NCBI RefSeq assembly: GCF_022045235.1
Contig: NW_027266283.1
Location: forward strand, 2,604,001-2,668,000
Length of the DNA: 64,000 nucleotides
Direction: 5' to 3'
Source: Haliotis cracherodii
Lineage: Eukaryota
Below the pieces are notes generated by a model, which saw nothing but the letters and a program-made list of their open reading frames with translations, was not told the DNA's origin and did not search any database. This document shows positions 114-33,908 of the stretch, in pieces. The stretch's first letter is position 1, and each line of letters opens with the position of its first letter. A program made the position numbers and the translations under genes.

Positions 114-1275
114 CTCTTGTGCCACCAGCTCCAGGTTTGCCATCGACTGAAGCAGACATATTCCCGCTGTGGTTATCACCTGTGGCAATATTACCTATAT
201 TACCTTGGTTTGTGATTTGACGACTTCCTGTAATGTAACATGTACATATTATTACATATTGGGGTTGAATATAAATTACTTTTAATACTTGTTAGTATTT
301 TACAACGAATGCATTGACCAAAGTTTCATTTATAAACACATGCTTGTGGTCTTCCCGAAACCGTTCATTAAGCTTTGTATTTTAGCCGATAATTCTTACT
401 GTTGCTTTTATTTATTATAATTCAATATTCAAAGCATGAATGGGAATACATTTTCAGCAGTCGACTAAATTTTGGGGACGACAGAGTCCTGGGACTTCTC
501 TACAGCCGATTGTGACGAAGCAAATGATTTCAATGTACATTGTGACGACATGATAGCAGCTTGTGTAATAGAGCTAAACCTTTTAAGAGCTTGTATTTAG
601 AGGAATTCACTTTGTGTTGACTTAACACGTAGCAATGCGTGTCGTAAATGCCACTTGAGGATAACGAATACTAAAGTATATGTTGTGAGACATTAAATCG
701 TCTGTTGTGGCACCCATCCCTCATCACAAAGCCATGTTGACGGTCACAAAATTCAGGATGACAATGAAGAAAATATTTTTGTTCGGACTGGTATATCTAG
801 TTAGGCCAATGATTATTATTCGAAAATGGCCATCTTCCGTCATATGCTCATGTGTTTAATGGAAAATAATTGTGAAAACAGGATGCCGAAATGATGGTTG
901 ACGGACAAAAGCTCTCCTTAAACACTATGTTTTGTTCCTCATTTTATCAGTTAATAACGATATACCCATAACAATTAATTCCTAATGAATATATGTCATG
1001 TTTTTTTAATCACATTAAACTGCAATATATATGGTATGAACCGGGGTTGTTGAAAAACATATTCAATGGATATTTCAATGAACACAACATAGTGATAAAA
1101 ATACACAATACACTTAAACCTATTTGATTAATTGTGAATCATTTTTGAGTTGACTACCTTGGTTATGGCTGGTAGTGACGCTATTGCCCATCCCGCCGTG
1201 GACAACACCAGCGACATTGGACTTTTCCACCGTGCCGCCTGCAACTCCCGTGACTTTGATATCATACTTTGACAT
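114..1275 (-). CDS. G1: motif-alpha + motif-beta(B) gene, 3'-partial (SAM exon presumably left of the window)
   Basis: Exons 1275-1158 (MSKYDIKVTGVAGGTVEKSNVAGVVHGGMGNSVTTSHNQ, donor G|gtagtc) and 227-114 (GSRQITNQGNIGNIATGDNHSGNMSASVDGKPGAGGTR, cag|...G|gtaag); both introns phase 1. The paralogous copy G3 continues into a SAM exon. Probable non-coding exon with donor at 1523. Confidence 0.8.
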
Positions 1276-1599
1276 TTTGTATTCTGAATAAGCAAGGATA
1301 AACAGACATGATGAGCAATATGACTTCACAAGTACAGAACAGGCGACAACATTTCAACATGGTTCTATCATGGGTTTTTTTATTGTCGAACTTTATTGCA
1401 CTTTTGACAAACTGGATCAGAAATACACATACTGGGCTACGACCAAGTGTCGTAAAGCCATTGGATTAGTTTAAACTTTAAAAAAACCCACAGATCTGTG
1501 TAAGACAAGAAAGTTAACCTACCTTGCTGCTGAAGGGCTCTTCATGCAATGAGCCTCGCTGTCACCTTCCCGTCATTACATATTAACATATTGACATGG

Positions 1600-4512: not shown

Positions 4513-5457
4513 TTATTTTGGAAGAAATTTCTTCAGATTCAGTATTTTCTTCCTTTCAAATGAGTCGTCAATGCCAAAGTCTCCAAGTTCATCCTCGTTG
4601 AGCTGAGACGACAAATCCCCATCAATGCCATGTTTCTTGAATAGTTGAATGTGTTTCTCCAGCTTCTTATTTTGTAGGAGACCAATAATTTCGTCCTCGG
4701 TGATGTCTGAAAGAGCTGTAAATGCAAGCTTTATAGTAAGTATTTTCAATATTAAACGTCACAATTCACATGTTGCGTCGCGTGGAAGCTATCATGTTTG
4801 TTTCAAGGTTACATAGTAAAACAGTATTTCACTTTAGGGTCGGTTAAATTTAATAGTTTATCCGTTATCTATAGACAAATTATGAGAAGTAAACATGATT
4901 CTTTTGTTTAGTTAAAATAAATACGTGTACAGAAGTTCGTTTTGAAAACGTTGGAACCTTTCAGCAAAGTTATGTACATAGCTCATCATATTTCGGCTTC
5001 CTGGTATTGATCCTGGAATGATAGATCAGCCATTTCACATTACAAAGCGGATTAACAGTAGTTTTACCTTTTCCTTTGAAGAATGCAGTGGGTCCTGATC
5101 TTTGCCCTGTGTTTTTTTCTCCTTGATCCACAGTGGCGCGTCGCATGTCCTGCCCACCTACGACGCCGTGGGCATTTTCAATATTATATGTTTGCTGCCT
5201 GTTTTCTGGAATGAAATGTTATGATCAATTTTTGGAGATAGAAAAACATATTTTTTTCTAAATCATCAAATCTAATGATGTTACGTTTAGATTGTTTCAT
5301 TAGATGCATGGCCAAACATATATATATGGGAGGATGTGTTTAAGCGCATTCATAAACTCACCAATAGATTCCATCTGACCTTGATTAATGCCGGCAACCA
5401 CAGAGTTGTCTACGTGAGCATCTCCCGTGACACCCTTCACGTCCATGTTGCTAATAC
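4513..5457 (-). CDS. G2: motif-alpha + motif-beta(A) + SAM(A); first exon not located
   Basis: Exons 5457-5362 (ISNMDVKGVTGDAHVDNSVVAGINQGQMESI), 5205-5068 (ENRQQTYNIENAHGVVGGQDMRRATVDQGEKNTGQRSGPTAFFKGK) and 4715-4513 (ALSDITEDEIIGLLQNKKLEKHIQLFKKHGIDGDLSSQLNEDELGDFGIDDSFERKKILNLKKFLPK*). All GT-AG, phase 1, open. SAM signature F..HGIDG..L..L...EL..FGI...ERKKIL. In-frame ATG at 5446. Confidence 0.8.
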
Positions 5458-8692: not shown

Positions 8693-8928
8693 GTGTTTGC
8701 AAACCTTCCTATTCACTGCGAAGTGTATCCACAGCGAGAAGGCGAACACAGTTATTCATGATAACTTCGAGATTATTTCTTAAGCTGCGTGTATATGTAT
8801 CAGTGTTCCGCACGACAAATGGAAATAAACACTTGCTTCTTTGGTAATGTAAATCCAGTTCACTGAATGAGGTCTTCCTTTAAACGCTTGAGCTTCCTTT
8901 GTTCTATCCTGCTGTTTATCTCAAGATC
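8693..8928 (-). pseudogene. Orphan 3' fragment of a SAM(B) exon plus 3'UTR
   Basis: 8928-8860 reads DLEINSRIEQRKLKRLKEDLIQ*, compared with G3 ELGINSKIEQRKLRRLKEDLIQ*. 8693-8860 duplicates the G3 3'UTR (9020-9180). Confidence 0.75.
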
Positions 8929-9179
8929 GACAAACAAATAAACAAACAAACAAACATATTATATAATATTTGAATAGTACGAAATACCATTTAATAAACC
9001 CTATTGGGTTATATCATGTAGTGTTTGCAAACCTTCCTATTCACTGCGAAGTGTATCCACAGCGAGAGGGCGAACACAGTTATTCATGATAACTTCGAGA
9101 TTATTTCTTAAGCTGCATGTGTATGTATCAGCGTTCCGTGTCACAAATGGAAGTAAACACTTGGCAATGAAAAACCAGT

Positions 9180-10080
9180 TCACTGGATGAGGTCCTCCTT
9201 TAAACGCCGAAGCTTCCTTTGTTCTATCTTGCTGTTAATCCCCAGTTCGTCAAGAAGTTCATCATCTAGGTCCATGAACAATCGCCCGTCAACATTATGT
9301 GTCTCAAAACTCTTAATAGTGTCCTCAGTGCAGTGGCGCTCCCTCAGAAGGTTTATCAGTGTTCCTGGGGTGAGTGCTCTAGGATCTGTTCAAGGTGAAT
9401 CATGTCGATTACAGATATGTCTCTCGATGTCACAAGTATTATCATGAGTACATTATATTCATTAGAAACCATTTACCTAAAGGTTTTAAAACAAACCGTT
9501 TTGACAAACACACCGTTGAATACCCACAATAGTACTCGCATAAGGATATATATCTTATATACCATGGGTTTATAAAAGCAAACGTGTTACAATAGAATTC
9601 GAGAAAAGGTCAACAGTGTAAAATGTCAAAATAATGTATACATGAATTTCGGCTGTAATACAATAGAGATCTGTCCTGTAGACCCGTGAAGGTCCGGGGT
9701 AGAATAGGCCTTCAGCAACCCATGCTTGCCATAAAAGGCGACTATGTTGTCGTTAGAGGCGACTAACGGGATCGGGTAGTCAGGCTCGCTGACTTGGTTG
9801 ATGCATGTCATAGCATCCAAATTTCGTGGATCTATGCTCATGATGTCAATCACTGGATTGTCTGGTCCAGACTCGATTATTTACAGACCGCCGTCATATA
9901 GCTGGAATATTGCTGAGTGCGGCGTTAAACAACAAACAATTAAGATCCGTCCTTGACAAGCCTTACCTCTTGTGTCACCAGCTCCAGGTTGGACACCGAC
10001 TGAAGCAGCCATATTCCCGCTGTGGTTATCACCTGTGGCAATATTACCTATATTACCTTGGTTTGTGATTTGACGACTTC
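9180..10080 (-). pseudogene. G3: motif-beta(B) + SAM(B); first coding exon and promoter deleted
   Basis: Exons 10080-9967 (GSRQITNQGNIGNIATGDNHSGNMAASVGVQPGAGDTR) and 9385-9180 (DPRALTPGTLINLLRERHCTEDTIKSFETHNVDGRLFMDLDDELLDELGINSKIEQRKLRRLKEDLIQ*); the SAM exon is absent from the ORF track. Both are open and phase 1. At ~11030 the sequence jumps from the equivalent of ~1149 to ~2395, removing the MSKYD exon. Confidence 0.75.
9680..9940 (+). mobile_element. SINE family 1 (long copy); the equivalent copy in the first duplicate ends at 1-90
   Basis: gacccgtgaaggtccggggtagaata...gctggaatattgctgagtgcggcgttaaacaacaaac. Confidence 0.85.
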
Positions 10081-15083: not shown

Positions 15084-17180
15084 TTATTTGGGAAGAAATT
15101 TCTTCAGATTCAGTATTTTCTTCCTTTCAAACGAGTCGTCAATGCCAAAGGCTTTAAGTTCATCCTCGTTGAGCTGAGACAATAAATCACCATCAATGAC
15201 ATGTGTCTGGAATAGTGGAATGTGTTTCTCTAGCTTCTTCTCCTGTAGGAGACCATTAATGTCCTCCTCAGAGATGTCCGAAAGAGCTGGAATGCAAACC
15301 TAGTAGTAAATATATTTCATAATAAAAGCCCAAACCCACACGTTATGTCACGTTGAAGCTCTCTGATGGTTTTCATGTTACACAATGAAACAGTATCTCA
15401 CTGTGGTGCCGTTTAAAAAAATATTGTTTATCAGTTTTCTTATAAACGATTTATGAGAAGCGTGTTTCTTTAAGATCAGTGATTCTGTATTAATAGCATT
15501 CCGTCTCAGGAGCATCTATGAATACATTTTGAAGGATACTGATTTGTAGTGCAGAAGTAAACATGATTCTTCTTATAAGTTAAATAAATACGGGTGCAGA
15601 ATTTCGTTTTTGAAACGTTGGAGCTTTTCCGCAAAGATCATAGCTTATTATATTTCGGCTATCAATGAAGTATTGATCCTGGAATGATAGATCAGCTGTT
15701 CAAAGTTTTATGTAACACAGATGATAAACAGTAATTTACTTTTTCCTTCGAAGTATCCAATGGGTCCTGATCTTTGCCCTGTGATTCCTCCTTGATCCAC
15801 AGATGCGCCTCGCATGTCCTGCCCACCTACGACGCCTTGGGCATTTCCAATGTGGTACGTTTGCTGCCTGTTTTCTGGAATGAAATGTTAATGATGATTA
15901 GATCAATGTGTAGAGATAGGAAACCAATTCAGTTAATTTTTAAATTCGATATCAAATTAGATTATGTTTCTTGATTTTATTTGCTACATGTGATGGATGC
16001 AAGGCCAACCATATTAGCCTCATCATGTGGGAGGATTGGTTCCTGCCAATCGCTATCCTCATTTGGTCTTTATTATTTGTTTTGTCACTGCAACTAACAC
16101 ATTGACCAATTGCTGATTCATAGTTTTAAAGAGACCTCTTATCAATATGGAAAGGGTTTATAAGGGTTTGTATATAACTTATAATTATTCAATATTCAAA
16201 ATATGTTGCAATACCTTTTTAGCCGAAAACACGAGAACAATGGACTAATTAAAATTTAGGGACAACAAAGAGCTAGACTCTGGCTCCCTTCTTTCATCTA
16301 CTGTCACATGATAAGTGCATAGCAATGAGAGCTGCTATGACATAATAATGACGCTTGCTATAGAACCAAATCTTTCAAGGCGTTCTTAATTGTCTTAAAC
16401 CAGAAACCTATGATTGTGGGTTCGAATCCCGGTTCGCCCCGATTATGTTTCTAGGTTTGTCAGCACCATACCCGTGACCGTGGGTTTCACCGAACAAATC
16501 TTTCAAGGCGTTCTTAATTGTCTTAAAAGGTGCTACACACTGTCAGTGCAACTTGAGTATAATGATGTTTTAAAATTATGTTTGAGCACACGCGAATGTC
16601 CAGGGCCATATTTCTTTTAAAGACAACTATAGGTGTTTCATTTATTCAGATCGAAAAGAAGCTCAAGACATAGGACCACTAACATAGTATTTTTCCCAAA
16701 CAAACAAAGTGATCCCGTTTATTTTATGTATTGTAGAAAGGAGATAAGCGTACAATGTTCGTAATGCTGGCAATGTTAGCCATGTTATGCTGTATATCCT
16801 TTTCCAAGTTCAATTTAGCCCTGTTAAAACAGTATTCTTGTCTTCTATTTAAATCCAATCAATAACAAAATATTCTTGCCAAATTATGTATATATGTCTT
16901 TTCTTTTACCACATTAATGTATGACATTTCTTATGAATCTGTGTTTTTTTTAAGTATTTGAATCTTTAAAAGGAACATTTCAAAATATGACATCGAAATG
17001 AACAGCAATGGGATATAACCACAGGACACTTAAGTCTATTTTACAAATCTCTTTCAGTTGACTACCTTGGTTGTGGTTGGTAGTGGAGGTATTACCCATC
17101 CCGCCGTGGACGAAACCAGCCATATTTGACGTTTCTGTCGTGCCTTCACCTCCCTTCATTGTGATATCATACTTTGACAT
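15084..17180 (-). CDS. G4: chimeric gene, MSKYD motif-alpha + motif-beta(A) + SAM(A), 150 aa
   Basis: Exons 17180-17066 (MSKYDITMKGGEGTTETSNMAGFVHGGMGNTSTTNHNQ), 15874-15740 (ENRQQTYHIGNAQGVVGGQDMRGASVDQGGITGQRSGPIGYFEGK) and 15286-15084 (TLSDISEEDINGLLQEKKLEKHIPLFQTHVIDGDLLSQLNEDELKAFGIDDSFERKKILNLKKFLPK*); 453 nt open. Non-coding exon donor at 17450. Confidence 0.78.
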
Positions 17181-18187
17181 TTTGTAATCTGAATAAAAAA
17201 AGATAAACAACTATGATATGCAATATAACTGCCCAAAATTGCAACAGGCTTCTCTCGTGGTTTTTCATCTTCTAACTGTTGTGTCCTTTTGACAAACTGG
17301 ACAACAAACAAACAAATTAGATTACGAACTGTGTCTACATGGTGGCTATATACAAGCGGAAGACATGCTTTTTTCTTATTTATACTCAGCCGTTGGTGGG
17401 TTTAAACTTTAATAACACAGAGCTGTGTATGACAAGGAAGTCAACCTACCTTGAATCTGAAGGGCCCTTCGCGTTATGAGCATCACTATCATTCCCGGTA
17501 TAACATGTTAACATATTGACATGGATCTAGTTATAGCCATATTTCTCGGGAATACGTTCCTTAAATGACGCAAGGTTATGAATAGTATGACAGGAAGACA
17601 ACTCAAGCTTTACGTCTGATGAGGTATTATCACCATATAACACCATGTTTTACGTTACAAATAGGTCATAGATATCTAGGCTGATGTCAGGCAGAAAGAG
17701 CAGGGTTGTGTATCGCTAGTGTCAACTTACGGATTGATATTGAACAGCAAACGTTTCGGTTTTACTATGAATGAACTGTATACCCATTGGACGACCCATA
17801 TTGATGCGGTCTGTTCATCTGATGTGTGCTCATGATGTAATATGCAATTATAAAATTTCAATGCAAAAAAATGCACCCCTGATTATCCACCGAAAAATGT
17901 TTTGCCTAAAGGGCAAAATAGCTGTGAAGCTTATATGAATGGACCATTTAAAATCAGTGATGTGACACCAGGCGTTTGCGAAAAGAGTAAGTATGTCCTG
18001 CCCCACCAGTAGCATTAATTATCATAAAATGCTACATTTTCAGCATGACGTTTTCGCATTCTACAAATTTCATTTTCTACAGATAGTCATTCTTCAGTTG
18101 AAGTAGGGGGGTACGGGGGGCAGTAGTCTAAGGAGTCACGATATGGCTGAAATATTGCCGATGTGACTTTAAATTTCAACTCACTCC

Positions 18188-18429
18188 CTCAGTCGTCTTA
18201 GTCGCCGTTATTCACTGTGCAGAGTTGCGTCCCTTGGGCACGCCAGAAAGCTATGGTTGTGGGTTTGAATCCCCGTTCGCCCCAATTATGTTTCTAGGTT
18301 TGTCAGCACCGTACCCGTGCTCGTGGGTTTCACCGAAGTGGTAAACGTCTGAGACATTAAGCTGACACGCTGTGATATAACTGGAATACTGTTGAAAGCG
18401 GCGTTAAGCCCAACTCACTCACTCACTCA
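18188..18429 (+). mobile_element. SINE family 2 (duplicated at 27799-28040)
   Basis: Same body and (CACT)n tail as 13844-14125. Confidence 0.8.
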
Positions 18430-18727
18430 GTTGAAGTACTAATGAATGAATGCTAATGGGAACGGGGATAGTATGATTGTTGTTTACTTATTCACAGAAC
18501 TTTCATGTTCCATATAACAACACTGTTTTTAGATCTAATATTTATTGTGTAATGATGGATGATAGCATGAGGCAATGCAAAATCTACTCTTCAAATGATA
18601 AACAAAGAGTATGTTGATCCAACTACAGTGAGAAGCCTTTTGATAGTTCATAATGGCATTTATAGCATTGACAAGGATAATCTATTACATATGATCTTTT
18701 AACAGTCGAGATGGTTGAGCGAATATA

Positions 18728-20172
18728 TTATTGAGGAAGATATTTCTTCAGATTCAGTATTTTCTTCCTTTCAAACGAGTCGTCAATCCCAAAGTTTGCT
18801 TTGAGTTCATCCTCGTTGAGCTGAGACAATAAATCCCCATCAATGCCATGTTTCTCGAACAGTGGAATGTGTTTTTCTAGCTTCTTCTCCCGTAAGAGAC
18901 CAACAATGTCCTCCTCAGAGATGTCCGAACGAGCTGGAATGCAAACGGAGTCGTAAATATATTTCATAATAAAAGCCAAAACCCAAAGGTTACGTCACGT
19001 TGAAGCCTTACTGATGGTTTCAATGTCACACAGTGTTATCAGTTATTTTTAAACAATTTATGATAAGCATATTTCCTTAAGATCAGTGATTCTGTATTAA
19101 TACTACTCCGTCTCAGGAGCATCTATGAATACTTTTTGAAGGACACTTATTTGTAGTGTAGAAAAGATTAATTTTCGCTTGTACATAATTTCGTTTTAGA
19201 AACGTTGGAGCCTTTCAGCAAAGATATGTACATAGCTAATCATATTTCGGTTCCCAATGAAGTATTGATCCCGGAATGAAATATCAGCGGTTCAAAGATT
19301 CATATAACACAGCAGATTAACAGAAATGTTATAATTACCTTTGCCTTTGAAGTATCCAATGGGTCCTGATTTTTGCCCTGTGATTCCTCCTTGATCCACA
19401 GATGCGCCTCGCATGTCCTGCCCACCTACGACGCCGTGTGCATTTCCAATATTGTATGTTTGCTGCCTGTTTTCTGGAATGAATTATTACTGATATCGAT
19501 GATGATTTCAATGTGTGGAGATAAAAAACCGATTGAGTCAATTGTCTAATTCAAATGGTATTACGTTTCTTGATTTTATTGATACTTGGATGAAAGACCA
19601 ACCATATTAACATGGTAATGTATAAGGATCTGTTCCAGCGAATCCATAAACTCACCAATAGATCCCATTTGGCCGTTATTAATGCCGTTGACGACAGAAT
19701 TTTCAACCTCAGCATTTCCCTTGGCACCCGTCACCTCCATGCTGCTTACATCTGGTGAATATATGAAATATTACTTATGCATACATGATTAACCTTCTAT
19801 AAGATTATAATAATAGTAATACTTAAAAATGAAAAAAAGTTCTTTTCCATAATCATATCATGAGCTGACACAATCAAATGCTTCGGGGGCGGTCGGGTAG
19901 CCTAGTGGTTAAAGCGTTCGCTCGTCACGCCGAAGACCCAGCTACGAACTGGCTATGTAGGACAGCCAGACTTTAGCATAACAACTTGTCCATATACAGT
20001 GTATGTGTTATTCAATTATTGTTTGTTATTTTAAGCGACTACATCAAACGATAAATAAACAATTCATACCTTTCTGTGGTGGAAGTTTTCCGTTACTGTT
20101 TTGAATCCCAGTAACGCTTGAGTTCTTTATTTTTGCGTTTCCGTCTGCCCCTGTCACGGTAATTGTGGCCAT
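18728..20172 (-). CDS. G5: two motif-alpha exons + motif-beta(A) + SAM(A), complete, 179 aa
   Basis: Exons 20172-20070 (MATITVTGADGNAKIKNSSVTGIQNSNGKLPPQK), 19751-19656 (DVSSMEVTGAKGNAEVENSVVNGINNGQMGSI), 19473-19339 (ENRQQTYNIGNAHGVVGGQDMRGASVDQGGITGQKSGPIGYFKGK) and 18933-18728 (ARSDISEEDIVGLLREKKLEKHIPLFEKHGIDGDLLSQLNEDELKANFGIDDSFERKKILNLKKYLPQ*). 540 nt, canonical phase-1 introns, in-frame TAA two codons before the ATG. Confidence 0.88.
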
Positions 20173-20282
20173 TGTTTAACCTGTAATATAACAGATCCTT
20201 CGGATTATGACCACAGTGGTGTACCATTTACAGACAGTTCTCAAACCTCGTTTATCCCAAAGTCGACTTGTCCTGTAAGAAG

Positions 20283-20540
20283 AGACCCGTGAAGATCCGG
20301 GGTAGAATAGGTCTTCAGCAACCCATGCTTGCCGTAAAAGGCGACTATGCTTGTCGTAGGAGGCGACTAACGGGATCGGGTGGACTCGCTGACTTAGTTG
20401 ATGCATGTCATCGATCCCAATTGTGTGGATCGATGCTCATCCATCACTGGATTGTCTGGTCGAGACTCGATTATTTACAGACCGCCGTCATATAACTGGA
20501 ATATTGCTGAGTGCGGCGTAAAACAACCAGCCAACCAACT
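20283..20540 (+). mobile_element. SINE family 1 (duplicated at 29891-30152)
   Basis: Homologous to 9680-9940. Confidence 0.85.
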
Positions 20541-21479
20541 GTAAGAAGGTGAAACTTCGTGTCCCCACACCAGACCTGATAACAGTGGTGCTTGACATAC
20601 AGGCTACAGATGCCGTGTATCGTAAGGCCCCAGGATTTGTGTCATTGGACGTTTTGAAGTGGTTGTGCTTGGTTGTGTTGAAGTTACATGTTCAATAAAA
20701 GCAGAATGTCCATAAACGACTTTTTAATCCGTAAAATATTTGTTAAATATACCAAACTGCATACTCTGATGACATTACAATTGAACATTAACAATTAGTG
20801 TTTGTGTGATTGGGATAATTCCAACATTTCAACTACATCGGTTATAATATGTTCTTACACTGTACTGAGTTTCAAATCCTTAATAAAAGCCTCCTCATTT
20901 AATTACTTTGAATAATTGCTCATGAAATAAAGTATTACCTTTGTGTGGACGAATATCATGAACGTCTGGTTTCTTTGTAGGTTTAGCGATGTGACAGTTT
21001 TCTATAGTGTTGACTTTATTGATTTCTTATGACATGGACTTATTTTTATTTCCATGACGTGGATCTACTTTTCTCAGGGAACGCCCATGTCATTTCTCGT
21101 AAAATATTTCCAACACCAACTCCAAAATTAGATTTTCCATTTCGGACAGGTTACCACTCGCATTGACTATCAACGCTTTTGAAATTTGATCAGTTGCCAA
21201 CAAATGTACATGCAGAAAAAAATCTGTTGGTGACAGGGATCTAATTTTAGTGTCCTGTGCGAAACGATTTTCAGAATGTAAAAATTGGGTCAAATGTTTG
21301 ACTGGTGAGTGAGTGAGTGAGTGGGTGGGTTGTGTCGGTCGATTGAGAGAGTGAGTGAGTGATGTTACGGTTGCCTGAAGACAATAGTGTCCCGGAAATC
21401 ATGAGAAACGATCCATGCTAACGGTGACCCGCATGCACCAAGCCCCGTCACATCGTCTGACCGGGTTATAATTGCTCTT

Positions 21480-21700
21480 TAGCAAGCCATGCTTGTCTTA
21501 GGGAGCACCTATTCTTGCAAGAAGCGACTAACGGTATCGGGTGGTCATGTTCGCTGACTTGGTTAATGCAGGTTATTGCTCAGATCGATGTTCATGATGT
21601 CAATCAATGGATTGTCTGGTCCACCTGATTATTTGCAGACCGTCGTCATATAGCTGTGATATTTCTGAGTGCGGCATTAAGCAACAAACAAATAAATAAT
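21480..21700 (+). mobile_element. SINE family 1, diverged (duplicated at ~31090-31310; partial copy 23170-23298)
   Basis: gcgactaacggtatcgggtggtca...gagtgcggcattaagcaacaaac. Confidence 0.75.
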
Positions 21701-22085
21701 GGACAAACCCTTCACATTAACACACTTGAAATAAAATAAAGCCTTAAGCGCGGACCTACCTGGAGGCCTGTTGTAACAACAAAAAACAAACAAACACAGA
21801 GCCGGATCAATCTATCCCAAATTAAATCCGCAATCATGCTTGAAAACACAACAGTGATGCATACATTGAAGTAAATAGATATTATTTATTTAAAATATGA
21901 GTCGATGAAAATCAGGTAACGAATATGTACTTTGATTAAAACAATTAATCGTTTGATGTCATGAATGACAGTTGATAACACTGAAGCCACAAAGATTGTC
22001 ATCGTTCATGGTCCATGTCATGTCGTGAGATGGTGAAGGATGAAGCATAGTGGACCCGAATGATAGGCGAACATCAATGGGGCAG

Positions 22086-23423
22086 TCAACTAGATTTCTT
22101 GGAACGATTTTCGAGAATTGTGTTTATCTTCATTTTATCTAGGGGTGACGTGACACCGAGCGCTTCCAAAACGCCCTCTTCTAAAAGTTTCACAAAGTAT
22201 TTGCCGTCAATGCCATTTTCCTCAAATGTTTTTCTCGTGGGTCCAGGAAAACGCTCTCTGGTCATCAGATCCTGAACATCTTCAACCGTCTTCAGCTCCA
22301 AGGCTGGACCTGGAACCGTGGTAAACAGTACATGTTACCATATGATTCGACATGTGTGTTAAATCATATATACGTTAAACAACATCCTGGTTTAGAGATA
22401 TACCCCTTATGCCGGATAACAATACATATATGTACATGAACTAACCGACAAAAGACAAGTGAAAACCATCGATGGTGGTTAAAACATGAAAAACTACTCA
22501 TATTCAAGAGATATGAGATTGGTTCCATGCACAAACGAACATACTTGTATATCGTGAAGAGCCGGGGTAGAATAGCTCTTCGGCAACCCATGCTTGCAGC
22601 GACTATGCTTGTCGTAAAAGGCGACTAACGGGATCGGGTGGTCAGGCTCGCTCAGGGAACGCCCATGTCATTTCTCGGAAAATATTTCCAACAACAACTC
22701 CAAAATTAGATTTTGGACAGGCTACCACTCGCATTGACTGTCAACACTTTTGAAATTTGATCAGTAGCCAACAAATGTACATGCAGAATTTTTGTTGTTG
22801 GTGACAATGATCTAATTTAAGTGCGAAACGATTTTCAGAATGTAAAAATTGGGTCAAGTGTTAGATAACAAAGCCAGGTGACGTTTTTTTTCAAATCAAA
22901 AGGTCTAATGATGATGCACGTGGTACGTCACTCACGTACACATATTCAGTCATAGTTTCACGTTTGACATGTCCTTGCATGTGTTTGTGACGGGAAGGCT
23001 CATCTTTTTGCGATCACCTAAAATTCATTCGGGGACATGACTGGTGAGTGAGTGAGTGAGTGGCTGGGTTGTGTGGGTGGATTGAGTGAGTGAGTGAGTC
23101 ATGTTACGGTTGCCTGCAGACAATACTGTCCCAGAAATCATCGTCACATCGCCTCACCGGGATACAATTGCTCTTCAGCAACCCATGTTTGCCTTTGGGA
23201 GCAACTACTCTTGGAAGAAGTGACTAACGGGGTCGGGTGGTCAGGCTTGCCCAATTGCGTGGATCTATGAACATGATATCGATCACTGGATTGTTTGGAC
23301 AAGCCTTACCTCTTGTGCCACCAGCTTCAGGTTGGACACCGCATGAAGCAACCATGTTCCCGCTGTGGTTATCACCTGTGGCAATATTACCTATATTACC
23401 TTGGTTTGTAATTTGTCGATTTC
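22086..23423 (-). pseudogene. G6: patchwork of motif-beta(B) exon + SAM(D) exon, own first coding exon lost (may be used by G7)
   Basis: Exons 23423-23310 (GNRQITNQGNIGNIATGDNHSGNMVASCGVQPEAGGTR) and 22309-22086 (GPALELKTVEDVQDLMTRERFPGPTRKTFEENGIDGKYFVKLLEEGVLEALGVTSPLDKMKINTILENRSKKSS*), both intact. Only the donor remnant of the MSKYD exon survives at ~24296-24300. Confidence 0.65.
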
Positions 23424-24300
23424 CTGGAATGTAAAATGTACATACTATTACATATTGGGATTGAATATAAATTACTGTCAATACTTGTAAGTATTTTACA
23501 ACGAATGAGCTCTGTAGTTCTTAGCAGATATTTCTTCTTGTTGCTTTTGTTTATTATAATTTTATATTCAATGCATGAAAGGGAATACATTTTCGGCAGA
23601 AAACACATTAGAAGTCGACTAAGTTTTGGGGAAAACAGAGAGCTGGGACTTCTCTACAGCGGATTGCGACGAAGCAAATGTTTTCAATGTGCATTGTGAC
23701 TACATTTCTGTGGCTTGTGCAATAGAGCTTAACCTTTCAAGGCCTGCTAAATTGTATTTAGACGTACTCACTTTGCGTTAACAAGTAGCAATGCGTGTCG
23801 TAAATGCGACTTCAGGATAACAAATACTAAAGTACATGTTGTGAGACATTAAATCGTCTGTTCTTGTACTCCAACTCTCATCACAAGGCCATGTTGACGG
23901 TCACAAAAGTATAGGATGAAAATGAAGAAAATATTTTTGTACATACTGGTATACATCTAGTTAGGACAATGATTATTATTCGATAATGACCATCTTCCGT
24001 CATATGATTATGTGTTTAATGGAAAATAATTGTGAATACCGGGTGCCAAAATTATGGTTGAAGGACTATTATGTTTTGTTCCTCGTTAAATCAGTTAATA
24101 ATTATATACCAATAACGATTTATTCATAAATAATGAATAAATATCATGGGTTTTTTTCTTCACATTAAAGTGTAATATATAGTCGGTGTTATTGAAAACA
24201 GTATTTAATGGACATTTCAATTAACACAACATTGTAATAAAAATGCAGAATACACTAAACCTATTTTATTAGTCGTGAATATTTTTTACGTTGACTACCT

Positions 24301-24678
24301 ACGAAACTTTGCATGTCTATCAGACTCATGCTGAACTGGTGCCTTTTGATATTTAGCACTTTGAGTATTTTATTGTTTATGTTTCCATGACAACAGGTTG
24401 GACTTAGGTTCTATTATAGGGTGGGTTCACTTATGGAGTATAACAAATAAACTGTTAAATATTTCCTTGCCAAACATTGCATGTCTATATATAAAGCACA
24501 TACTGAACTGGTGCCATTTGATATTAAGGAGTTTTAGAAATGTATATTTTAGAATTTCCTTTACAGCTATTTTGACATGGGCTTAGAGAAATGTTGGGTC
24601 ATTTACCTGGTTTGGGACCATAACGTGTTAAAATAGGCGGGGGATATAGATGACTTCGTCGACTATACGCTTGTTTCT
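24301..24678. mobile_element. Inserted repeat (possibly a non-autonomous Helitron/Helentron-type element) replacing the MSKYD exon
   Basis: Absent from G1 at the same position; has an internal imperfect tandem repeat (gcatgtctat...ctgaactggtgcc.tttgatatt) and a ggcggggga...cttgtt end. Confidence 0.45.
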
Positions 24679-25352
24679 TATAATATCAAAGCCGTTGGAT
24701 TAGTTTTAAACTTAAAAAACACAGATCTGTGTATGACAAGAACGTTAACCTACCTTGCTTCTGAAGGGCTCTTCATGCAATGAGCCTCGCTATCACCTAC
24801 CCGGTATTACATATTAACATATTGACATGGATCTATTTATAACAACTTTCCTGGAGAATTCCTTCCGTAAATGACCAACGAGATGAAACGCAACGCAAAT
24901 GAGATGATTGTTGTTGTTTTCTTCTTCTCAGATAAAAGCCCAAACCCACACGTTATGTCAAGTTGAAGCTCTCTGATGGTTTTCATGTTACACAATGAAA
25001 CAGTATGTCACTGTGGCGCTGGTTAAAAAATATTGTTTATCAGTTTTCTTATAAACGATTTAGGAGAAGCGTGTTTCTTTAAGATCTGTGTTTCTGTATT
25101 AATAGCATTCCGTCTCAGGAGCATCTATGAATACATTTTGAAGGATACGTATTTATATTGCAGAAGTAAAGATTCATTTTCATATTCATAGTTAAAATAA
25201 ATACGGGTGCAGAATTTCGTTTTGGAAAGGTTTGAGCTTTTCCGCAAAGATCATAGCTTATCATATTTCGGCTATCAATGAAGTATTGATCCCAGAATGA
25301 TAGATCAGCTGTTCAAAGTTTCATGTAACACAGATGATTAACAGTAATTTAC

Positions 25353-26792
25353 CTTTTCCTTCGAAGTATGCAATGGGTCCTGATCTTGGCCCTGTGATTC
25401 CTCCTTGATTCACAGATGCGCCCCGCATGTCCTGCCCACCTACGACGCCTTGGGCATTTTCAATATTGTATGTTTGCTGCCTGTTTTCTGGAATAAAATG
25501 TTAATGATGATTAGATCAATTTGTGGAGATAGGAAACCAATTCAGTTAATTGTTAAATTCGATATCAAATTAGATTATGTTTCTTGATTTTATTTGCTAC
25601 ATGTGATGGATGCAAGGCCAACCATATTAGCCTCGTCATGTGGGAGGATGGGTTCCAGCGAATCGCTATCCTCATTTAATCTTTATTATTTGTTTGGTCA
25701 CTGCAACTAACACATTGACCAATTGCTGATTCATAGTTTTAAAGAGACCTCTTATCAATATGGAAAGGGTTTATAAGGGTTTGTATATAATTTATAATTA
25801 TTCAATATTCAGAATATGTTGCAATACCTTTTTAGCCGAAAACACGAGAACAATGGACTAATTAAGATTTAGGGACAACAAAGAGCTAGACTCTGGCTCC
25901 CTTCTTTCAACTACTGTCACGTAATAAGTGCAAAGCAATGAGAGCTGCTATGACATAATAATGACGCTTGCTATAGAACCAAATCTTTCAAGGCGTTCTT
26001 AATTGTCTTAAACCAGAAACCTATGATTTGTGGGTTCGAATCCCGGTTCGCCCGGATTATGTTTCTAGGTTTGTCAGCACCATACCCGTGACCGTGGGTT
26101 TCACCGAACAAATCTTTCAAGGCGTTCTTAATTGTCTTAAAAGGTGCTACACACTGTCAGTGCAACTTGAGTATAATGATGTTTTAAAATTATGTTTGAG
26201 CACACGCAAATGTCCAGGGCCATATTTCTTTTAAAGACAACTATGGGTGTTTCATTTATTCAGATCGAAAAGAAGCTCAAGACATAGGACCCCTAACATA
26301 GTATTTTCCCAAACAAACAAAGTGATCCCGTTTATTTTATGTATTGTAGAAAGGAGATAAGCGTACAGTGTTCGTAATGCTGGCAATGTTACCCATGTTA
26401 TGCTGTATATCCTTTTCCAAGTTCAATTTAGCCCTGTTAAAACAGTATTCTTGTCTTCTATTTAAATCCAATAAATAACGAAATATTCTTGCCGAATTAT
26501 GTATATACGTCTTTTCTTTTACCACATTAATGTATGACATTTCTTATGAATCTGTGTTTTTTTAATTATTTGAATCTTTAAAAGGAACATTTCAAAATAT
26601 GACATCGAAATGAACAGCAATGGGATATAACCACAGGACACTTAAGTCTATTTTACAAATCTCTTTCAGTTGACTACCTTGGTTGTGGTTGGTAGTGGAG
26701 GTATTACCCATCCCGCCGTGGACGATACCAGCCATATTAGACGTTTCTGTTGTGCCTTCACCTCCCTTCATTGTGATATCATACTTTGACAT
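25353..26792 (-). CDS. G7: copy of G4 whose SAM(A) exon is deleted
   Basis: Exons 26792-26678 (MSKYDITMKGGEGTTETSNMAGIVHGGMGNTSTTNHNQ) and 25487-25353 (ENRQQTYNIENAQGVVGGQDMRGASVNQGGITGPRSGPIAYFEGK), intact. At ~24931 the intron is fused directly to 3'-flank sequence (equivalent of ~14850 joined to ~15322). Confidence 0.65.
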
Positions 26793-28338
26793 TTTGTAAT
26801 CTGAATAAAAAAAGATAAACAACTATGATATGCAATATAACTGCCCAAAATTGCAACAGGTTTCTCTCGTGGTTTTTCATCTTCTAACTGTTGTGTCCTT
26901 TTGACAAACTGGACAACAAACAAACAAATTAGATTACGAACTGTGTCTACATGGTGGCTATATACAAGCGGAAGACATGCTTTTTCTTATTTATTCTCAT
27001 CCGTTGGTGGGTTTAATCTTTAATAACACAGAGCTGTGTATGACAAGGAAGTCAACCTACCTTGAAACTGAAGGGCCCTTCGCGTTATGAGCCTCGCTAT
27101 CATTCCCAGTATAACATGTTAACATACTGACATGGATATATTTATAGCCATATTTCTCGGGAATACGTTCCTTAAATGACACAAGGTTATGAATAGCATG
27201 ACAGGAAGACAACTCAAGCTTTCCGTCTGATGAGGTATTATCACCATATAACACCATGTTTTACGTTACAAATAGGTCATAGATATCTAGGCTGATGTCA
27301 GGCAGAAAGAGCAGGGTTGTGTATCGCTAGTGTCAACTTACGGATTTATATTGAATAGCAAACGTTTCGGTTTTACTATGAATGAACTGTATACCCATTG
27401 GACGACCCATATTGATGCGGTCTGTTCATCTGATGTGTGCTCATGATGTAATATGCAATTATAAAATTTCAATGCAAAAAAATGCACCCCTGATTATCCA
27501 CCGAAAAAGATTTTGCCTAAAGGGCAAAATAGCTGTGAAGCTTATATGAATGGACCATTTAAAATCAGTGATGTGACACCAGGCGTTTGCGAAAAGTGTA
27601 AGTATGTCCTGCCCCACCAGTAGCATTCATTATTATAAAATGCTTCATTTTCAGCATGACGTTTTCGCATTCTACAAATTTCATTTTCTACAGATAGTCA
27701 TTCTTCAGTTGAAGTAGGGGGGTACAGGGGGCAGTAGTCTAAGGAGTCATGATATGGCTGAAATATTGCCGATGTGACTTTAAATTTCAACTCACTCCCT
27801 CAGTCGTCTTAGTCGCCGTTATTCACTGTGCAGAGTTGCGTCCCTTGGGCACGCCAGAAAGCTATGGTTGTGGGTTTGAATCCCCGTTCGCCCCAATTAT
27901 GTTTCTAGGTTTGTCAGCACCGTACCCGTGCTCGTGGGTTTCACCGAAGTGGTAAACGTCTGAGACATTAAGCTGACACGCTGTGATATAACTGGAATAC
28001 TGTTGAAAGCGGCGTTAAGCCCAACTCACTCACTCACTCAGTTGAAGTACTAATGAATGAATGCTAATGGGAACGGGGATAGTATGATTGTTGTTTACTT
28101 ATTCACAGAACTTTCATGTTCCATATAACAACACTGTTTTTAGATCTAATATTTATTGTGTAATGATGGATGATAGCATGAGGCAATGCAAAATCTACTC
28201 TTCAAATGATAAACAAAGAGTATGTTGATCCAACTACAGTGAGAAGCCTTTTGATAGTTCATAATGACATTGATAGCATTGACAAGGATAATCTATTACA
28301 TATGATCTTTTAACAGTCGAGATGGTTGAGCGAATATA

Positions 28339-29780
28339 TTATTGAGGAAGATATTTCTTCAGATTCAGTATTTTCTTCCTTTCAAACGAGTCGTCAATCC
28401 CAAAGTTTGCTTTGAGTTCATCCTCGTTGAGCTGAGACAATAAATCCCCATCAATGCCATGTTTCTCGAACAGTGGAATGTGTTTTTCTAGCTTCTTCTC
28501 CCGTAAGAGACCAACAATGTCCTCCTCAGAGATGTCCGAACGAGCTGGAATGCAAACGGAGTCGTAAATATATTTCATAATAAAAGCCAAAACCCAAAGG
28601 TTACGTCACGTTGAAGCCTTACTGATGGTTTCAATGTTACACAGTGTTATCAGTTATTTTTAAACAATTTATGATAAGCATATTTCCTTAAGATCAGTGA
28701 TTCTGTATTAATACTACTCCGTCTCAGGAGCATCTATGAATACTTTTTGAAGGACACTTATTTGTAGTGTAGAAAAGATTAATTTTCGCTTGTACATAAT
28801 TTCGTTTTAGAAACGTTGGAGCCTTTCAGCAAAGATATGTACATAGCTAATCATATTTCGGTTCCCAATGAAGTATTGATCCCGGAATGAAATATCAGCG
28901 GTTCAAAGATTCATATAACACAGCAGATTAACAGAAATGTTATAATTACCTTTGCCTTTGAAGTATCCAATGGGTCCTGATTTTTGCCCTGTGATTCCTC
29001 CTTGATCCACAGATGCGCCTCGCATGTCCTGCCCACCTACGACGCCTTGTGCATTTCCAATATTGTATGTGTGCTGCCTGTTTTCTGGAATGAATTATTA
29101 CTGATATCGATGATGATTTCAATGTGTGGAGATAAAAAACCGATTGAGTCAATTGTCTAATTCAAATGGTATTACGTTTCTTGATTTTATTGATACTTGG
29201 ATGAAAGACCAACCATATTAACATGGTAATGTATAAGGATCTGTTCCAGCGAATCCATAAACTCACCAATAGATCCCATTTGGCCGTTATTAATGCCGTT
29301 GACGACAGAATTTTCAACCTCAGCATTACCCTTGGCACCCGTCACCTCCATGCTGCTTACATCTGGTGAATATATGAAATATTACTTATGCATACATGAT
29401 TAACCTTCTATAAGATTATAATAATAGTAATACTTAAAAATGAAAAAAAGTCCTTTTCCATAATCATATCATGAGCTGACACAATCAAATGCTTCGGGGG
29501 CGGTCGGGTAGCCTAGTGGTTAAAGCGTTCGCTCGTCACGCCGAAGACCCAGCTACGAACTGGCTATGTAGGAGAGCCAGACTTTAGCATAACAACTTGT
29601 CCATATACAGTGTATGTGTTATTCAATTGTTTGTTATTTTAAGCGACTACATCAAACGATAAATAAACAATTCATACCTTTCTGTGGTGGCAGTTTTCCG
29701 TTACTGTTTTGAATCCCAGTAACGCTTGAGTTCTTTATTTTTGCGTTTCCGTCTGCCCCTGTCACGGTAATTGTGGCCAT
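28339..29780 (-). CDS. G8: near-identical copy of G5, 179 aa
   Basis: Exons 29780-29678, 29362-29267, 29084-28950 and 28544-28339. Two synonymous changes in the alpha exons, Q>H and H>Q in the beta exon, SAM protein identical. Confidence 0.88.
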
Positions 29781-31706
29781 TGTTTAACCTGTAATATAAC
29801 AGATCCTTCAGATTATGACCACAGTGGTGTACCATTTACAGACAGTTCTCAAACTTCGTTTATCCCAAAGTCGACTTGTCCTGTAAGAAGAGACCCGTGA
29901 AGATCCGGGGTACAATAGGTCTTCAGCAACCCATGCTTGCCGTAAAAGGCGACTATGCTTGTCGTAGGAGGCGACTAACGGGATCGGGTGGACTCGCTGA
30001 CTTAGTTGATGCATGTCATCGATCCCAATTGTGTGGATCGATGCTCATGATACCCATCACTGGATTGTCTGGTCGAGACTCGATTATTTACAGACCGCCG
30101 TCATATAACTGGAATATTGCTGAGTGCGGCGTAAAACAACCAGCCAACCAACTGTAAGAAGGTGAAACTTCGTGTCCCCACACCAGACCTGATAACAGTG
30201 GTGCTTGACATACAGGCTACAGATGCCGTGTATCGTAAGGCCCCAGGATTTGTGTCATTGGACGTTTTGAAGTGGTTGTGCTTGGTTGTGTTGAAGTTAC
30301 ATGTTCAATAAAAGCAGAATGTCCATAAACGACTTTTTAATCCGTAAAATATTTGTTAAATATACCAAACTGCATACTCTGATGACATTACAATTGAACA
30401 TTAACAATTAGTGTTTTTGTGATTTGGATAATTCCAACATTTCAACTACATCGGTTATAATATGTTCTTACACTGTACTGAGTTTCAAATCCTTAATAAA
30501 AGCCTCCTCATTTAATTACTTTGAATAATTGCTCATGAAATAAAGTATTACCTTTGTGTGGACGAATATCATGAACGTCTGGTTTCTTTGTAGGTTTAGC
30601 GATGTGACAGTTTTCTATAGTGTTGACTTTATTGATTTCTTATGACATGGACTTATTTTTATTTCCATGACGTGGATCTACTTTTCTCAGGGAACGCCCA
30701 TGTCATTTCTCGTAAAATATTTCCAACACCAACTCCAAAATTAGATTTTCCATTTCGGACAGGTTACCACTCGCATTGACTATCAACGCTTTTGAAATTT
30801 GATCAGTTGCCAACAAATGTACATGCAGAAAAAAATCTGTTGGTGACAAGGATCTAATTTTAGTGTCCTGTGCGAAACGATTTTCAGAATGTAAAAATTG
30901 GGTCAAGTGTTTGACTGGTGAGTGAGTGAGTGGGTGGGTTGTGTCGGTCGATTGAGAGAGTGAGTGAGTGATGTTACGGTTGCCTGAAGACAATAGTGTC
31001 CCGGAAATCATGACAAACGACCCATGCTAACGGTGACCCGCATGCACCAAGCCCCGTCACATCGTCTGACCGGGTTATAATTGCTCTTTAGCAAGCCATG
31101 CTTGTCTTAGGGAGCACCTATTCTTGCAAGAAGCGACTAACGGGATCGGGTTGTCATGTTCGCTGACTTGGTTGATGCAGGTCATTGCTCAGATCGATGT
31201 TCATGATGTCAATCAATGGATTGTCTGGTCCACCTGATTATTTGCAGACCGTCGTCATATAGCTGTGATATTTCTGAGTGCGGCATTAAGCAACAAACAA
31301 ATAAATAATGGGCAAACCCTTCACAGTAACACACTTGAAATAAAATAAAGCCTTAAGCGCGGACCTACCTGGAGGCCTGTTGTAACAACAAACAAACAAA
31401 CAAACAAACAAACACAGAGCCGGATCAATCTATCCCAAATTAATTCCGCAATCACGCTTGAAAACACAACAGTGATGCATACATTGAAGTAAATAGATAA
31501 TATTTATTTGATAAAATATGAGTCGATGAAAATCAGGTAACGAATATGTACTTTGATTAAAACAATTAATCGTTTGATGTCATGAATGACAGTTGATAAC
31601 ACTAAAGCGGCAACAATTGTCATCGTCCATGGTCCATGTCATGTCGTGAGATGGTCAAGGATGAAGCATAGTGGACCCGAATGATAGGCGAACATCAATG
31701 GGGCAG

Positions 31707-33908
31707 TCAACTAGATTTCTTGGAACGATTTTCGAGAATTGTTTTTATCTTCATTTTAGCAAGGGGTGACGTGACACCGAGCTCTTCCAAAACGCCCTCT
31801 TCTAAAAGTTTCACAAAGTATTTGCCGTCAATGCCATTTTCCTCAAATGTTTTTCTCGTGGGTCCAGGAAAACGCTCTCTGGTCATCAGATCCTGAACAT
31901 CTTCAACCGTCATCAGCTCCAAGGCTGGACCTGGAACCGTGGTAAACTGTACATATTACCATATGATTCGGCATGTGTGTTAAATCATATATACGTTAAA
32001 CAACATTCTGGTTTAGAGATATACCCCTTCATATATGGGTGGACACAATTTTATGGATAACAGTTTCTTTGATACTGTAAAAAGCGACGTTTCGGTTCAG
32101 ATCATTATACCGTTGACAAGCAAGACTGAATACGGGACATGTACAGAATATATATAGTAGGTGTACTGTGTACTATATATACTACTATATATATGTACCA
32201 TGTCCCCCATTCAGTCTTGCTTTACAACGGTATAAGGATCTATACTGAAACGTCGCTTTTTACAGTATTGAAGTTGTTATCTATAACATTGTGTCTACCT
32301 CATCATCCGTCAACTTCTAAGTAATGCCTATCAAACAATTAATACATATATGTACATAAACACACCGACAAAAGACACGTGAAAACCATAGATGTTGGTT
32401 AATACATGAAGAACTACTCATATTCAAGAGATATGAGATTGGTTCCGTGCACAAACCAACAAACTGGTATACTCAGTCTGTATAAACCTACTCTCATGAA
32501 CGTCACATGTGACGCCATAGATCCGTGACTCGAGCTGCACTTTTTGTCTCGTGCAGGATTAGCGTGTTAAGTTTGGAAATCATGTGCACCATATTGTGAT
32601 GAGAATAAAGACACGGTGGTAACTTGTTTGATAGGCATTACAACGGTGGTAACATTTGACAGGTTGTTACTTTTGTCATTAAACGGTACACATTGGAAAC
32701 ATCTCTTCTCAAGGTACATACTTCTCTATATCTTTCTTGGTTCGCGTTTCTTTTGACGGTGAGTATATATGCAATGTCTGTCTATATATGCAATGGTGGC
32801 CCAGTCGTATAAGGCGCCGCGATTCGCTGTGCAGAGTTGCGTCCCTTGAGCACGCCAGAAAGCTATGATTGTGGTTCGAATCCCGGTTCATCCCGATTAT
32901 TTTTCTAGCTTTGTCAGCACCATACCCGTGCTCATGGGTTTCATCGAAGTGGTTAACGTCATATACCTGCATTCCTTCGAGCTTTCCTCCAACATAAAGC
33001 TGACACGCCGTGATATAACTGGAATACTGTTCAAAGCGGCGTTAAACTTTGTAGAACGGACGCCTGAATTCTAAAGGTGGGCCGTGTATGGTATTAAATT
33101 AATATGCGTCAACATTTGACTTGTTTGAAGTAGTATTCTGTTAAACTCAAAAGGATTATGTTGTGGATCGTGTAGATGTCTCCCCATTCATACACGACAG
33201 TTAAATTCTATAAAACGTTATAAATGGCGAGTAATAAATAAAATACTAAACTTGCTCCCGTTTAATACCAATTTTATGAAACTCGCTTCCGCTCTTCAAA
33301 TACAAGAACTATTCACTCGTTTCATAAAACTGGTATTACACGGGAGCTCGTTTAGTATTCTATATGTTCTCTAAACCTAGATAAATATGTGAGCCCTACT
33401 TTGAGATGTAGTTTGTGACGCTGGTTGTTGTGATGGGCTGCTGCTGCTGCTGCCAATGTTGACCTTGTCTCCTGTGACCTCGTTGACGGTCGTCACTCCA
33501 GTGCTGCCGCTCACGTTGTTGTGGTATGTCTTTTCCACTGAACAAATTTACACACATTTACACATATTGCAAGTACTCCCCCCAAGCAACAGTGTAACAT
33601 TAGCCTATACTGAAATCAATTCAATCGTTCAAATAATGTTTCTTTCCATATTTACTCAGATGAGTGCGGCATATACATTGTTTCCATTGGTGACCTAGCC
33701 TCTGTATTGTTCTATATCATATTTAATACGAAAGTGTCAATCTTTAACAAAAAATGCATTTACGAAAATAGTTACCTTTGTGTTGCGGCCCGTGATAGAT
33801 GTTGCCCATCCCCCCTTCAACCACCGCAGCCACATTGCTGTGAGTAGCCTGCCCTCCAGACATCCCCGTTAATTTTATAGATCCCGGTAGTCTCTCCATC
33901 TTCTTCAT
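31707..33908 (-). CDS. G9: motif-alpha + motif-beta(D) + SAM(D), complete, 164 aa
   Basis: Exons 33908-33776 (MKKMERLPGSIKLTGMSGGQATHSNVAAVVEGGMGNIYHGPQHK), 33537-33400 (VEKTYHNNVSGSTGVTTVNEVTGDKVNIGSSSSSPSQQPASQTTSQ) and 31930-31707 (SPALELMTVEDVQDLMTRERFPGPTRKTFEENGIDGKYFVKLLEEGVLEELGVTSPLAKMKIKTILENRSKKSS*). 495 nt, phase-1 GT-AG introns. Confidence 0.85.
32030..32340. mobile_element. Foldback insertion with Penelope-like terminal-repeat arms
   Basis: Inverted arms ~32040-32140 and ~32199-32296 containing cttg(a)caacggtataa...gaaacgtcg; absent from the paralogous intron at ~22408. Confidence 0.6.
32794..33047 (+). mobile_element. SINE family 2
   Basis: tggtggcccagtcgtataaggcgccgc...aaagcggcgttaaac. 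Confidence 0.85.
33243..33360. repeat. Hairpin/MITE-like inverted repeat
   Basis: atactaaacttgctcccgtttaataccaattttatgaaac ... gtttcataaaactggtattacacgggagctcgtttagtat. Confidence 0.7.

Follow-up and report, generated by a model that had tools for sequence, protein, structure and literature searches.

The DNA analyzed here, referred to as the window, is a stretch of 64,000 nucleotides from the genome of the abalone Haliotis cracherodii. It includes part of an array of about 10 related genes, which extends from 7.7 kb to the left of the window to position 33,900 and has no further members within 80 kb on the left and 60 kb on the right. The array genes combine short module exons rich in glycine and asparagine, designated alpha, alpha', beta, gamma and delta, with an exon that encodes a SAM domain (Table 1). 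All of the modules occupy exons of symmetric phase 1, which have been shuffled into many arrangements. Part of the end of the SAM exon of G3 is present a second time at 8863-8931, within a local duplication (8617-8933 / 8957-9253), and a candidate module at 12744-12616 was dropped because it lacks splice context.

Table 1. Genes, exons and repeats of the array, in window coordinates.
Feature	Position	Strand	Description
G1	115..1283	-	alpha' exon 1283-1159, gamma exon 227-115; SAM exon just left of the window
G2	4513..5457	-	single alpha exon of the G5 subtype 5457-5362, beta 5205-5068, SAM; matches P0008
G3	9180..10080	-	gamma exon 10080-9968, SAM exon 9385-9180
G4	15087..17188	-	alpha' exon 17188-17067, beta exon 15874-15740, SAM exon; matches P0006
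G5	20172-18728	-	coding segments 20172-20070, 19751-19656, 19473-19339, 18933-18728; alpha repeat 1 20163-20098, alpha repeat 2 19740-19675
G5 first coding exon	20070..20180	-	ATG 20172, alpha repeat 1, most of the Pro-containing linker, phase-1 donor
Interspersed-repeat fragment	19886..19939		intron between the two alpha exons of G5; from contig depth and loose ends
G5 alpha repeat 2 exon	19656..19751	-	symmetric phase 1-1
G5 module beta exon	19339..19473	-	weakly RHIM-like; symmetric phase 1-1
G5 last exon	18728..18933	-	SAM domain and stop; Pfam SAM_1 E 8.8e-11
G6/G7	22089..26800	-	alpha' 26800-26679, beta 25487-25353, gamma 23423-23311, SAM exon 22303-22089; exons from sequence only
G8	28339..29788	-	exons 29788-29678, 29362-29267, 29084-28950, 28544-28339; = P0005
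G9	31710..33905	-	alpha' exon 33905-33776, delta exon 33537-33400, SAM exon 31924-31710
Recent tandem duplication	15322-22408 and 24932-32029		97.6% identical, period 9.6 kb

G5 is a spliced gene of four exons whose product has the order alpha, linker, alpha, beta, SAM. All three introns are of the GT-AG type and in phase 1, including the 318-nt intron that parts the two alpha exons; the repeat fragment in that intron belongs to a very abundant interspersed element that appears to have a tRNA-like SINE head. Splicing was assessed in contigs from four public runs of three studies, which are presumed to be RNA and are not labelled as such. The junctions 19656->19473 and 19339->18933 are each joined in all four runs, and 20070->19751 is joined in two of the four (one study), with a variant of this first junction in three. 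The spliced model is identical, letter for letter, to the annotated H. cracherodii protein P0162 (XP_071111895.1), and a SAM exon of the window likewise has 100% identity with an H. cracherodii protein. The SAM domain of G5 gives a Pfam SAM match above the cut-off and has a five-helix fold. The first coding exon also carries a phase-1 acceptor, and its ATG is directly preceded by an in-frame stop (20180-20173); in P0011 of H. asinina the reading frame is open at the corresponding place and continues through it from upstream modules.

An earlier examination of the sequence (the original prediction) held that G5 contains two repeats that align without gaps and are separated by a Pro-containing linker, and both parts of this claim are borne out. 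The two strings lie where they had been placed, and their local alignment score of 70 is reached by none of 10,000 shuffles (best shuffle 48); the gap-free alignment has identical residues at 13 of 22 positions and identical bases at 39 of 66 (59% at the DNA level). The linker, of 13 residues, is real, because the spliced model equals P0162. The 22-residue repeats start at residues 4 and 39, which gives a period of 35 with a loop of 13 residues, and since each copy occupies one exon, the repeat is an old exon duplication.

The wider claim that the motif is doubled in G5 and G8 and single in G1, G4 and G9 stands with two amendments. G8 does carry two copies, but the 7.1 kb in which it lies duplicate the G5 region with 97.6% identity, and its product departs from that of G5 at 2 of 179 residues, neither of which falls in a repeat, so that G8 is not an independent second case. 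The single copies of G1, G4 and G9 are present and related to the G5 motif, but they belong to the diverged subtype alpha', and G2 adds a fourth single copy, of the G5 subtype. Profile comparison shows homology between alpha and alpha' (HHalign probability 88.5, E 2.7e-6, matched by none of 40 column shuffles). No such similarity was detected among alpha, beta, gamma and delta, whose mutual profile scores are reached by 11 to 33 of 40 shuffles, and the notion that all four modules form one repeat family was rejected on this ground. The window genes are all proteins with motifs and a SAM domain, and across the family the number of alpha copies runs from 1 to 3: among relatives in other abalones, P0012 has three alphas, P0011 has six modules, and P0019 and P0165 have three or four gammas.

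The repeats of G5 were also said to carry opposite charges at equivalent positions, K-I-K facing E-V-E. This is correct, and a third opposite pair, D/K at repeat position 7, had been overlooked. Loss of the complementarity in homologues would have counted against a stacked arrangement, and it is retained: G5 (P0162) and G8 (P0005) have three opposite pairs and no like pairs, at positions 7, 11 and 13, as does the H. rufescens orthologue P0163 at the same positions, the H. rufescens paralogue P0007 at positions 2, 7 and 11, and the H. asinina protein P0011 at positions 9, 11 and 13. The balance of three to none is thus found in all four two-repeat proteins (P0005/P0162, P0163, P0007 and P0011, from three abalone species), while the positions of the pairs shift, and the same behaviour is reported for HET-s-related motifs of fungi in PMC4518210. 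The charge statistics are modest, with permutation P values of 0.008, 0.02 and 0.17 in three two-repeat proteins that are related to one another. In the three-copy protein P0012 the counts of opposite and like pairs are mixed (2/0, 1/1 and 2/2), and the single copy of G2 has four charged positions, at which like charges would face each other in a homo-stack. An alpha' pair that was doubled independently, on contigs C26 and C6, again has three opposite pairs and no like pair (P 0.07 for the C26 pair). These copies stand 53-55 residues apart in large exons with acidic repeats (C26:414,000 and 1,196,000; C6:3,645,000), for which no Pfam domain was found.

In the 10 G5-subtype repeats compared, no charge occurs at positions 1, 3, 5, 6, 10, 12, 14, 15, 17, 19 and 20, and G5, A10, N14, S15, G19 and I20 are invariant; the hydrophobic positions (1, 3, 6, 10, 12, 17 and 20) are arranged around the glycines at 5 and 19. 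This charge-free alternation with an invariant asparagine fits a putative beta-arch that has an inward apolar face and an Asn ladder, by the established beta-arcade rules given in PMC4262963.

Outside the array, the motif occurs on a caspase. A search of the 1.18-Gb genome with the G4 motif returned, as its best match beyond the array, the first exon of a caspase gene on contig C14 (G000:C14:15,934,664-15,927,848, L072; E 0.044), and the N-terminus of this caspase consists of two alpha' motifs, of which one is acidic and the other basic overall. Exon 1 scores 77 against the G4 motif and exon 2 scores 61 against the G1 motif, each reached by none of 10,000 shuffles. The enzyme itself is identified by Pfam Peptidase_C14 (E 8.8e-24), and its catalytic pentapeptide is QSCRG. 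Both motif exons and the catalytic exon are joined in a single contig in two of the four runs (two studies; runs presumed to be RNA), with two small exons in between that hold the remaining N-terminal part of the large subunit, and this contig has no room for a CARD or DED exon. The two caspase repeats differ in length by two residues and are weakly alike (144 of 10,000 shuffles). In a survey of bivalve caspases the prodomains are given as CARD, DED, DD, DSRM or none, and the word amyloid is absent from the accessible text (PMC7836458).

The G5 repeats compared directly with the caspase motifs give scores that are not significant (402 to 1008 of 10,000 shuffles). The G5 subtype has five matches in the genome, all of them inside the window, and the genome search yielded neither a copy outside the window nor a partner other than SAM. 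The link of G5 to sensor and caspase therefore runs through alpha': it is alpha' that was found on an effector enzyme, and not the subtype of G5 itself.

The G1 motif, searched against the genome, has 14 matches, among them a 72-nt exon of phase 1-1 at C15:10,910,785 that represents the second half of alpha' (E 0.21 genome-wide). This half-exon reaches 30 bits against a profile for which SAM proteins alone were used, and short exons ahead of it end like the first half of alpha'. On the same strand, 17 kb downstream, lies an exon of 2095 codons that encodes nSTAND3 (E 1.9e-19) together with some 40 ankyrin repeats, and in this region (C15:10.91-10.93 Mb) the phases are compatible, the half-exon having a phase-1 donor and the STAND exon a phase-1 acceptor. 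Seven paralogues, from the eight closest of the 40 STAND matches listed, were scanned with the same kind of profile, built from SAM proteins only, and in six of the seven an alpha' half-exon (13-25 bits) lies on the same strand at a distance of 2.8-21 kb upstream, while none of the 10,538 frames of a reversed-sequence control gave a match of 10 bits. The six are not six independent observations, because the STAND paralogues share ancestry. Judged by exon position and phase, the nSTAND3-ankyrin proteins probably carry a single copy of alpha' at the N-terminus. Their cluster lies at C15:10.53-11.24 Mb, with further members at C30:0.05-0.14 and 1.76 Mb, in single exons of 1100-2400 codons. Four caspases that are 63-64% identical to the C14 caspase interleave with the STAND genes on C15; in the two that were checked the alpha exon is degenerate, and the intact caspase is that on C14.

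Other motif sites suggest further partners. At C14:15,917,845-15,916,965 (L073), a gene that is single-copy in the genome search, an internal alpha' exon (score 59, none of 10,000 shuffles) precedes two C-terminal hydrophobic helices, so placed that it may be joined to a two-helix membrane-protein part. Beyond this gene, at C14 15.905-15.899 Mb, a TNF-receptor-like gene was read by eye. At C20:1.748-1.751 Mb a gamma exon stands in compatible phase ahead of an IcsB_M/LRAT-like hydrolase exon, to which it is plausibly joined; the surrounding region (C20:1.72-1.79 Mb; L053-L057, L064 and L066) holds a tandem family of IcsB_M/LRAT-like predicted cysteine hydrolases. The alpha' matches on C10 (17.40, 17.65 and 17.68 Mb), C26 and C6 have no identifiable partner domain, and that on C67 has ankyrin-like pieces only.

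The original prediction, which is supported in part, took its analogy from the fungal HET-S/NWD2 system, in which an effector with two motifs is paired with a receptor that has one. Inside the window this contrast does not separate effector from receptor, because all of the genes are motif and SAM proteins with freely shuffled modules. Outside the window the layout of one and two copies does appear, with the double motif on the caspase and the single motif upstream of the NLR-like genes, and this resembles the arrangement described for NWD2/HET-S, where one copy is on an N-terminal position of a STAND protein with C-terminal repeats and two are on a death-type effector (PMC4344463, PMC4518210, PMC7889193). 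The repeats of G5 share with the HET-s-related motifs (HRAM) of PMC4518210 a pair of units of about 21-22 residues, a loop of 13 residues within the described range of 6-18, and complementary outward charges, these being mixed in the three-repeat P0012.

Membership in the HET-s family itself is ruled out, since consensus, sequence match and domain context all fail. Alpha does not follow the HRAM consensus as published (hydrophobic at 5, 8, 10, 16 and 18; G19), its hydrophobic and glycine register being different, and it stands N-terminal to SAM or caspase, whereas HRAM is described as C-terminal to a HeLo or HeLo-like domain. Pfam searches with 12 queries to E 10, under filters that drop most matches above E 0.1, returned no RHIM or HET-s match, an alpha profile run against the PDB at E 10 returned no amyloid chain, and PDB sequence searches with the alpha and the beta, gamma and delta profiles gave chance-level matches only. 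The abalone genes also depart from the NWD2/HET-S systems in that the NTPase is nSTAND3 with ankyrins, in that sensor and intact caspase lie on different contigs, and in that the motif and SAM array has no counterpart in the available descriptions of the fungal systems.

The RHIM and cRHIM motifs (RIPK1, RIPK3, ZBP1 and TRIF; in Drosophila PGRP-LC, Imd and Pirk) are likewise short, G/N-rich and homotypic (PMC4262963, PMC13506858), and in these accounts they occur in 1-3 copies where death-fold domains usually stand and include small motif-bearing regulators such as Pirk. Alpha is nevertheless not a RHIM: it lacks the core tetrad (IQIG/VQVG type), and 26 of 40 shuffles reach its score against abalone RHIMs. 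Pfam RHIM matches eight places in this genome, none of them in the window, and five canonical matches at or over the Pfam cut-off are at C16:3.88, 3.93 and 6.21 Mb, C14:4.41 Mb and C56:12.7 Mb. Module beta, which has no Q in the tetrad and no Pfam RHIM match, is weakly RHIM-like, to judge from its alignment with six abalone RHIM-profile matches (HHalign probability 22, E 0.001, 18 columns, none of 40 shuffles).

In systems of bacterial amyloid signalling sequences (BASS) with CHAT proteases, as is proposed for the abalone, an amyloid motif links an NLR to a protease of the caspase superfamily (PMC7889193); this likeness is one of description, and the abalone case differs in that the organism is an animal, the protease a true caspase, and the motif spread over exons. 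Among polymerising SAM domains (SARM1, Scm and Shank), the best structural matches of the G5 SAM domain are to the SARM1 SAM (Foldseek E 1e-4), but these are weak generic matches (25-28% identity), and G5 has neither an ARM nor a TIR domain.

Because alpha and alpha' follow the layout of NWD2/HET-S (PMC4344463) and BASS (PMC7889193), as described there, without the usual death-fold domains, they are read here as amyloid-type, and we consider it fairly probable that they form a family of signalling motifs in which each copy would provide one rung of a stacked beta-solenoid. An unlikely alternative is that the motifs are non-amyloid interaction peptides, which bind a folded partner or form a finite beta-zipper and so recruit their carriers to one platform, with doubling serving to raise avidity only. 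The presence of the motif on sensor-like, caspase and SAM proteins would suit any recruitment motif, and free variation in copy number and predicted disorder or low model confidence would also be expected of such a peptide; what this account leaves unexplained is why opposite charges should stand at matching positions in four G5-type proteins and in one independent doubling, and why alternate positions should be strictly charge-free around an invariant N and G.

Structure prediction bears on a second alternative, in which the modules form an ordinary beta-helix domain, within one chain or a small closed oligomer and without prion-like propagation, the series alpha-alpha-beta making three rungs. 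The ESM Atlas model of P0005(1-112), although of low confidence (mean pLDDT 0.57), resembles beta-helical proteins with TM 0.49-0.64, all rows of that comparison lying below the bar set for naming a match. AlphaFold2, supplied with alignments of 8 and 10 sequences, models the SAM domain confidently and stays below pLDDT 50 throughout the motif region, which comprises residues 1-102 in P0005 and 1-179 in P0012; its best model of P0012, also of low confidence there, has two strands per repeat (3-10/14-20, 38-45/49-55 and 70-74/81-87). Foldseek applied to the first AlphaFold2 model matched the SAM domain alone, and an ESM Atlas feature search with the N-terminal region gave no usable match. A closed beta-helix agrees with these two models, both of low confidence, and explains intra-chain charge pairing equally well, but many members, including the NLR-like genes, have one alpha, and one rung does not make a stable solenoid; in addition, alpha, beta, gamma and delta have no detectable mutual similarity. 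We rate it as less likely again than the recruitment peptide.

The least credible alternative makes the doubling selectively neutral, a side effect of exon duplication in a fast-recombining tandem array, and the motif a G/N-rich spacer with a chance charge pattern that one ancestor passed on. It draws on the symmetric phase 1 exons, their many combinations and the modest permutation P values, but it fails to account for repeats that have diverged to 59% at the DNA level with the core kept free of gaps, for charge pairs that change position while the 3/0 balance stays, and for the recurrence of the family on several contigs, where it stands N-terminally in unrelated proteins of immune type.

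Under the preferred solenoid reading, a signalling route can be proposed. It would start from the motif family that SAM proteins and the spliced caspase have in common, an observed feature, and from the single copy that exon position and phase place at the N-terminus of the NLR-like STAND-ankyrin proteins. By analogy with NWD2/HET-S, oligomerisation of the sensor, driven by a ligand, would cluster these motifs and nucleate a stack, and the stack could then recruit the double-motif caspase, which would be activated by proximity. The weakest step concerns G5 and G8, which have no enzyme domain and might join or tune such stacks: repeat 1 lying over repeat 2 would pair the opposite charges, the SAM domain would add self-association, and the adjacent beta module may couple the stack to RHIM-type assemblies. 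The chances that G5 acts as an adaptor or amplifier are about even, and those that it acts as a decoy or inhibitor are distinctly smaller but appreciable; if the G5 subtype does not cross-seed with alpha', it would belong to a parallel line with other partners. At its widest, and with the case for and against evenly balanced, the scheme describes a fungal-style amyloid network of abalones built on motifs other than RHIM. In such a network nSTAND3-ankyrin sensors would template a beta-solenoid onto the double-motif caspase, the exon-shuffled motif and SAM array, G5 included, would serve as a combinatorial switchboard, by which signals passing between the alpha, RHIM-like beta and gamma classes are converted or blocked, and the two-helix membrane protein and the LRAT-like hydrolase would be further outputs.

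Whether RHIM is the sole signalling amyloid of animals was asked in a 2021 review (PMC7889193), and the alpha family allows a direct and inexpensive test of whether animals have a second such class, since it offers short peptides together with a candidate sensor and a candidate effector from one genome. If the reading is true, the amyloid relay from NLR to effector would be extended to an animal, a caspase would be activated via an amyloid prodomain in place of CARD or DED, and an immune gene array that evolves fast and lacks annotation, in farmed and endangered abalones, would gain a function.

A literature search found no description of the alpha family, and supplementary motif lists (e.g. 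those of PMC4262963 and PMC12261475) might include one. Searches for relatives outside Haliotis, which have little power for motifs this short, found none: five proteins among 18 candidates carried the motif, none of them from outside the genus, and among the best 150 of 226 profile matches five cover both the motif region and SAM, these being from Haliotis where named. The named carriers of the motif family are thus all Haliotis. Within this genome, a second motif and SAM array at C15:12.03-12.28 Mb has several broken frames and two caspase-like exons among its genes, and a delta and SAM gene with a frameshift lies at C14:15.944 Mb. The window itself also holds two long minisatellite arrays, at 40893-42488 and 57914-60074 (the latter has a unit of some 47 bases), which are unrelated to the motif.
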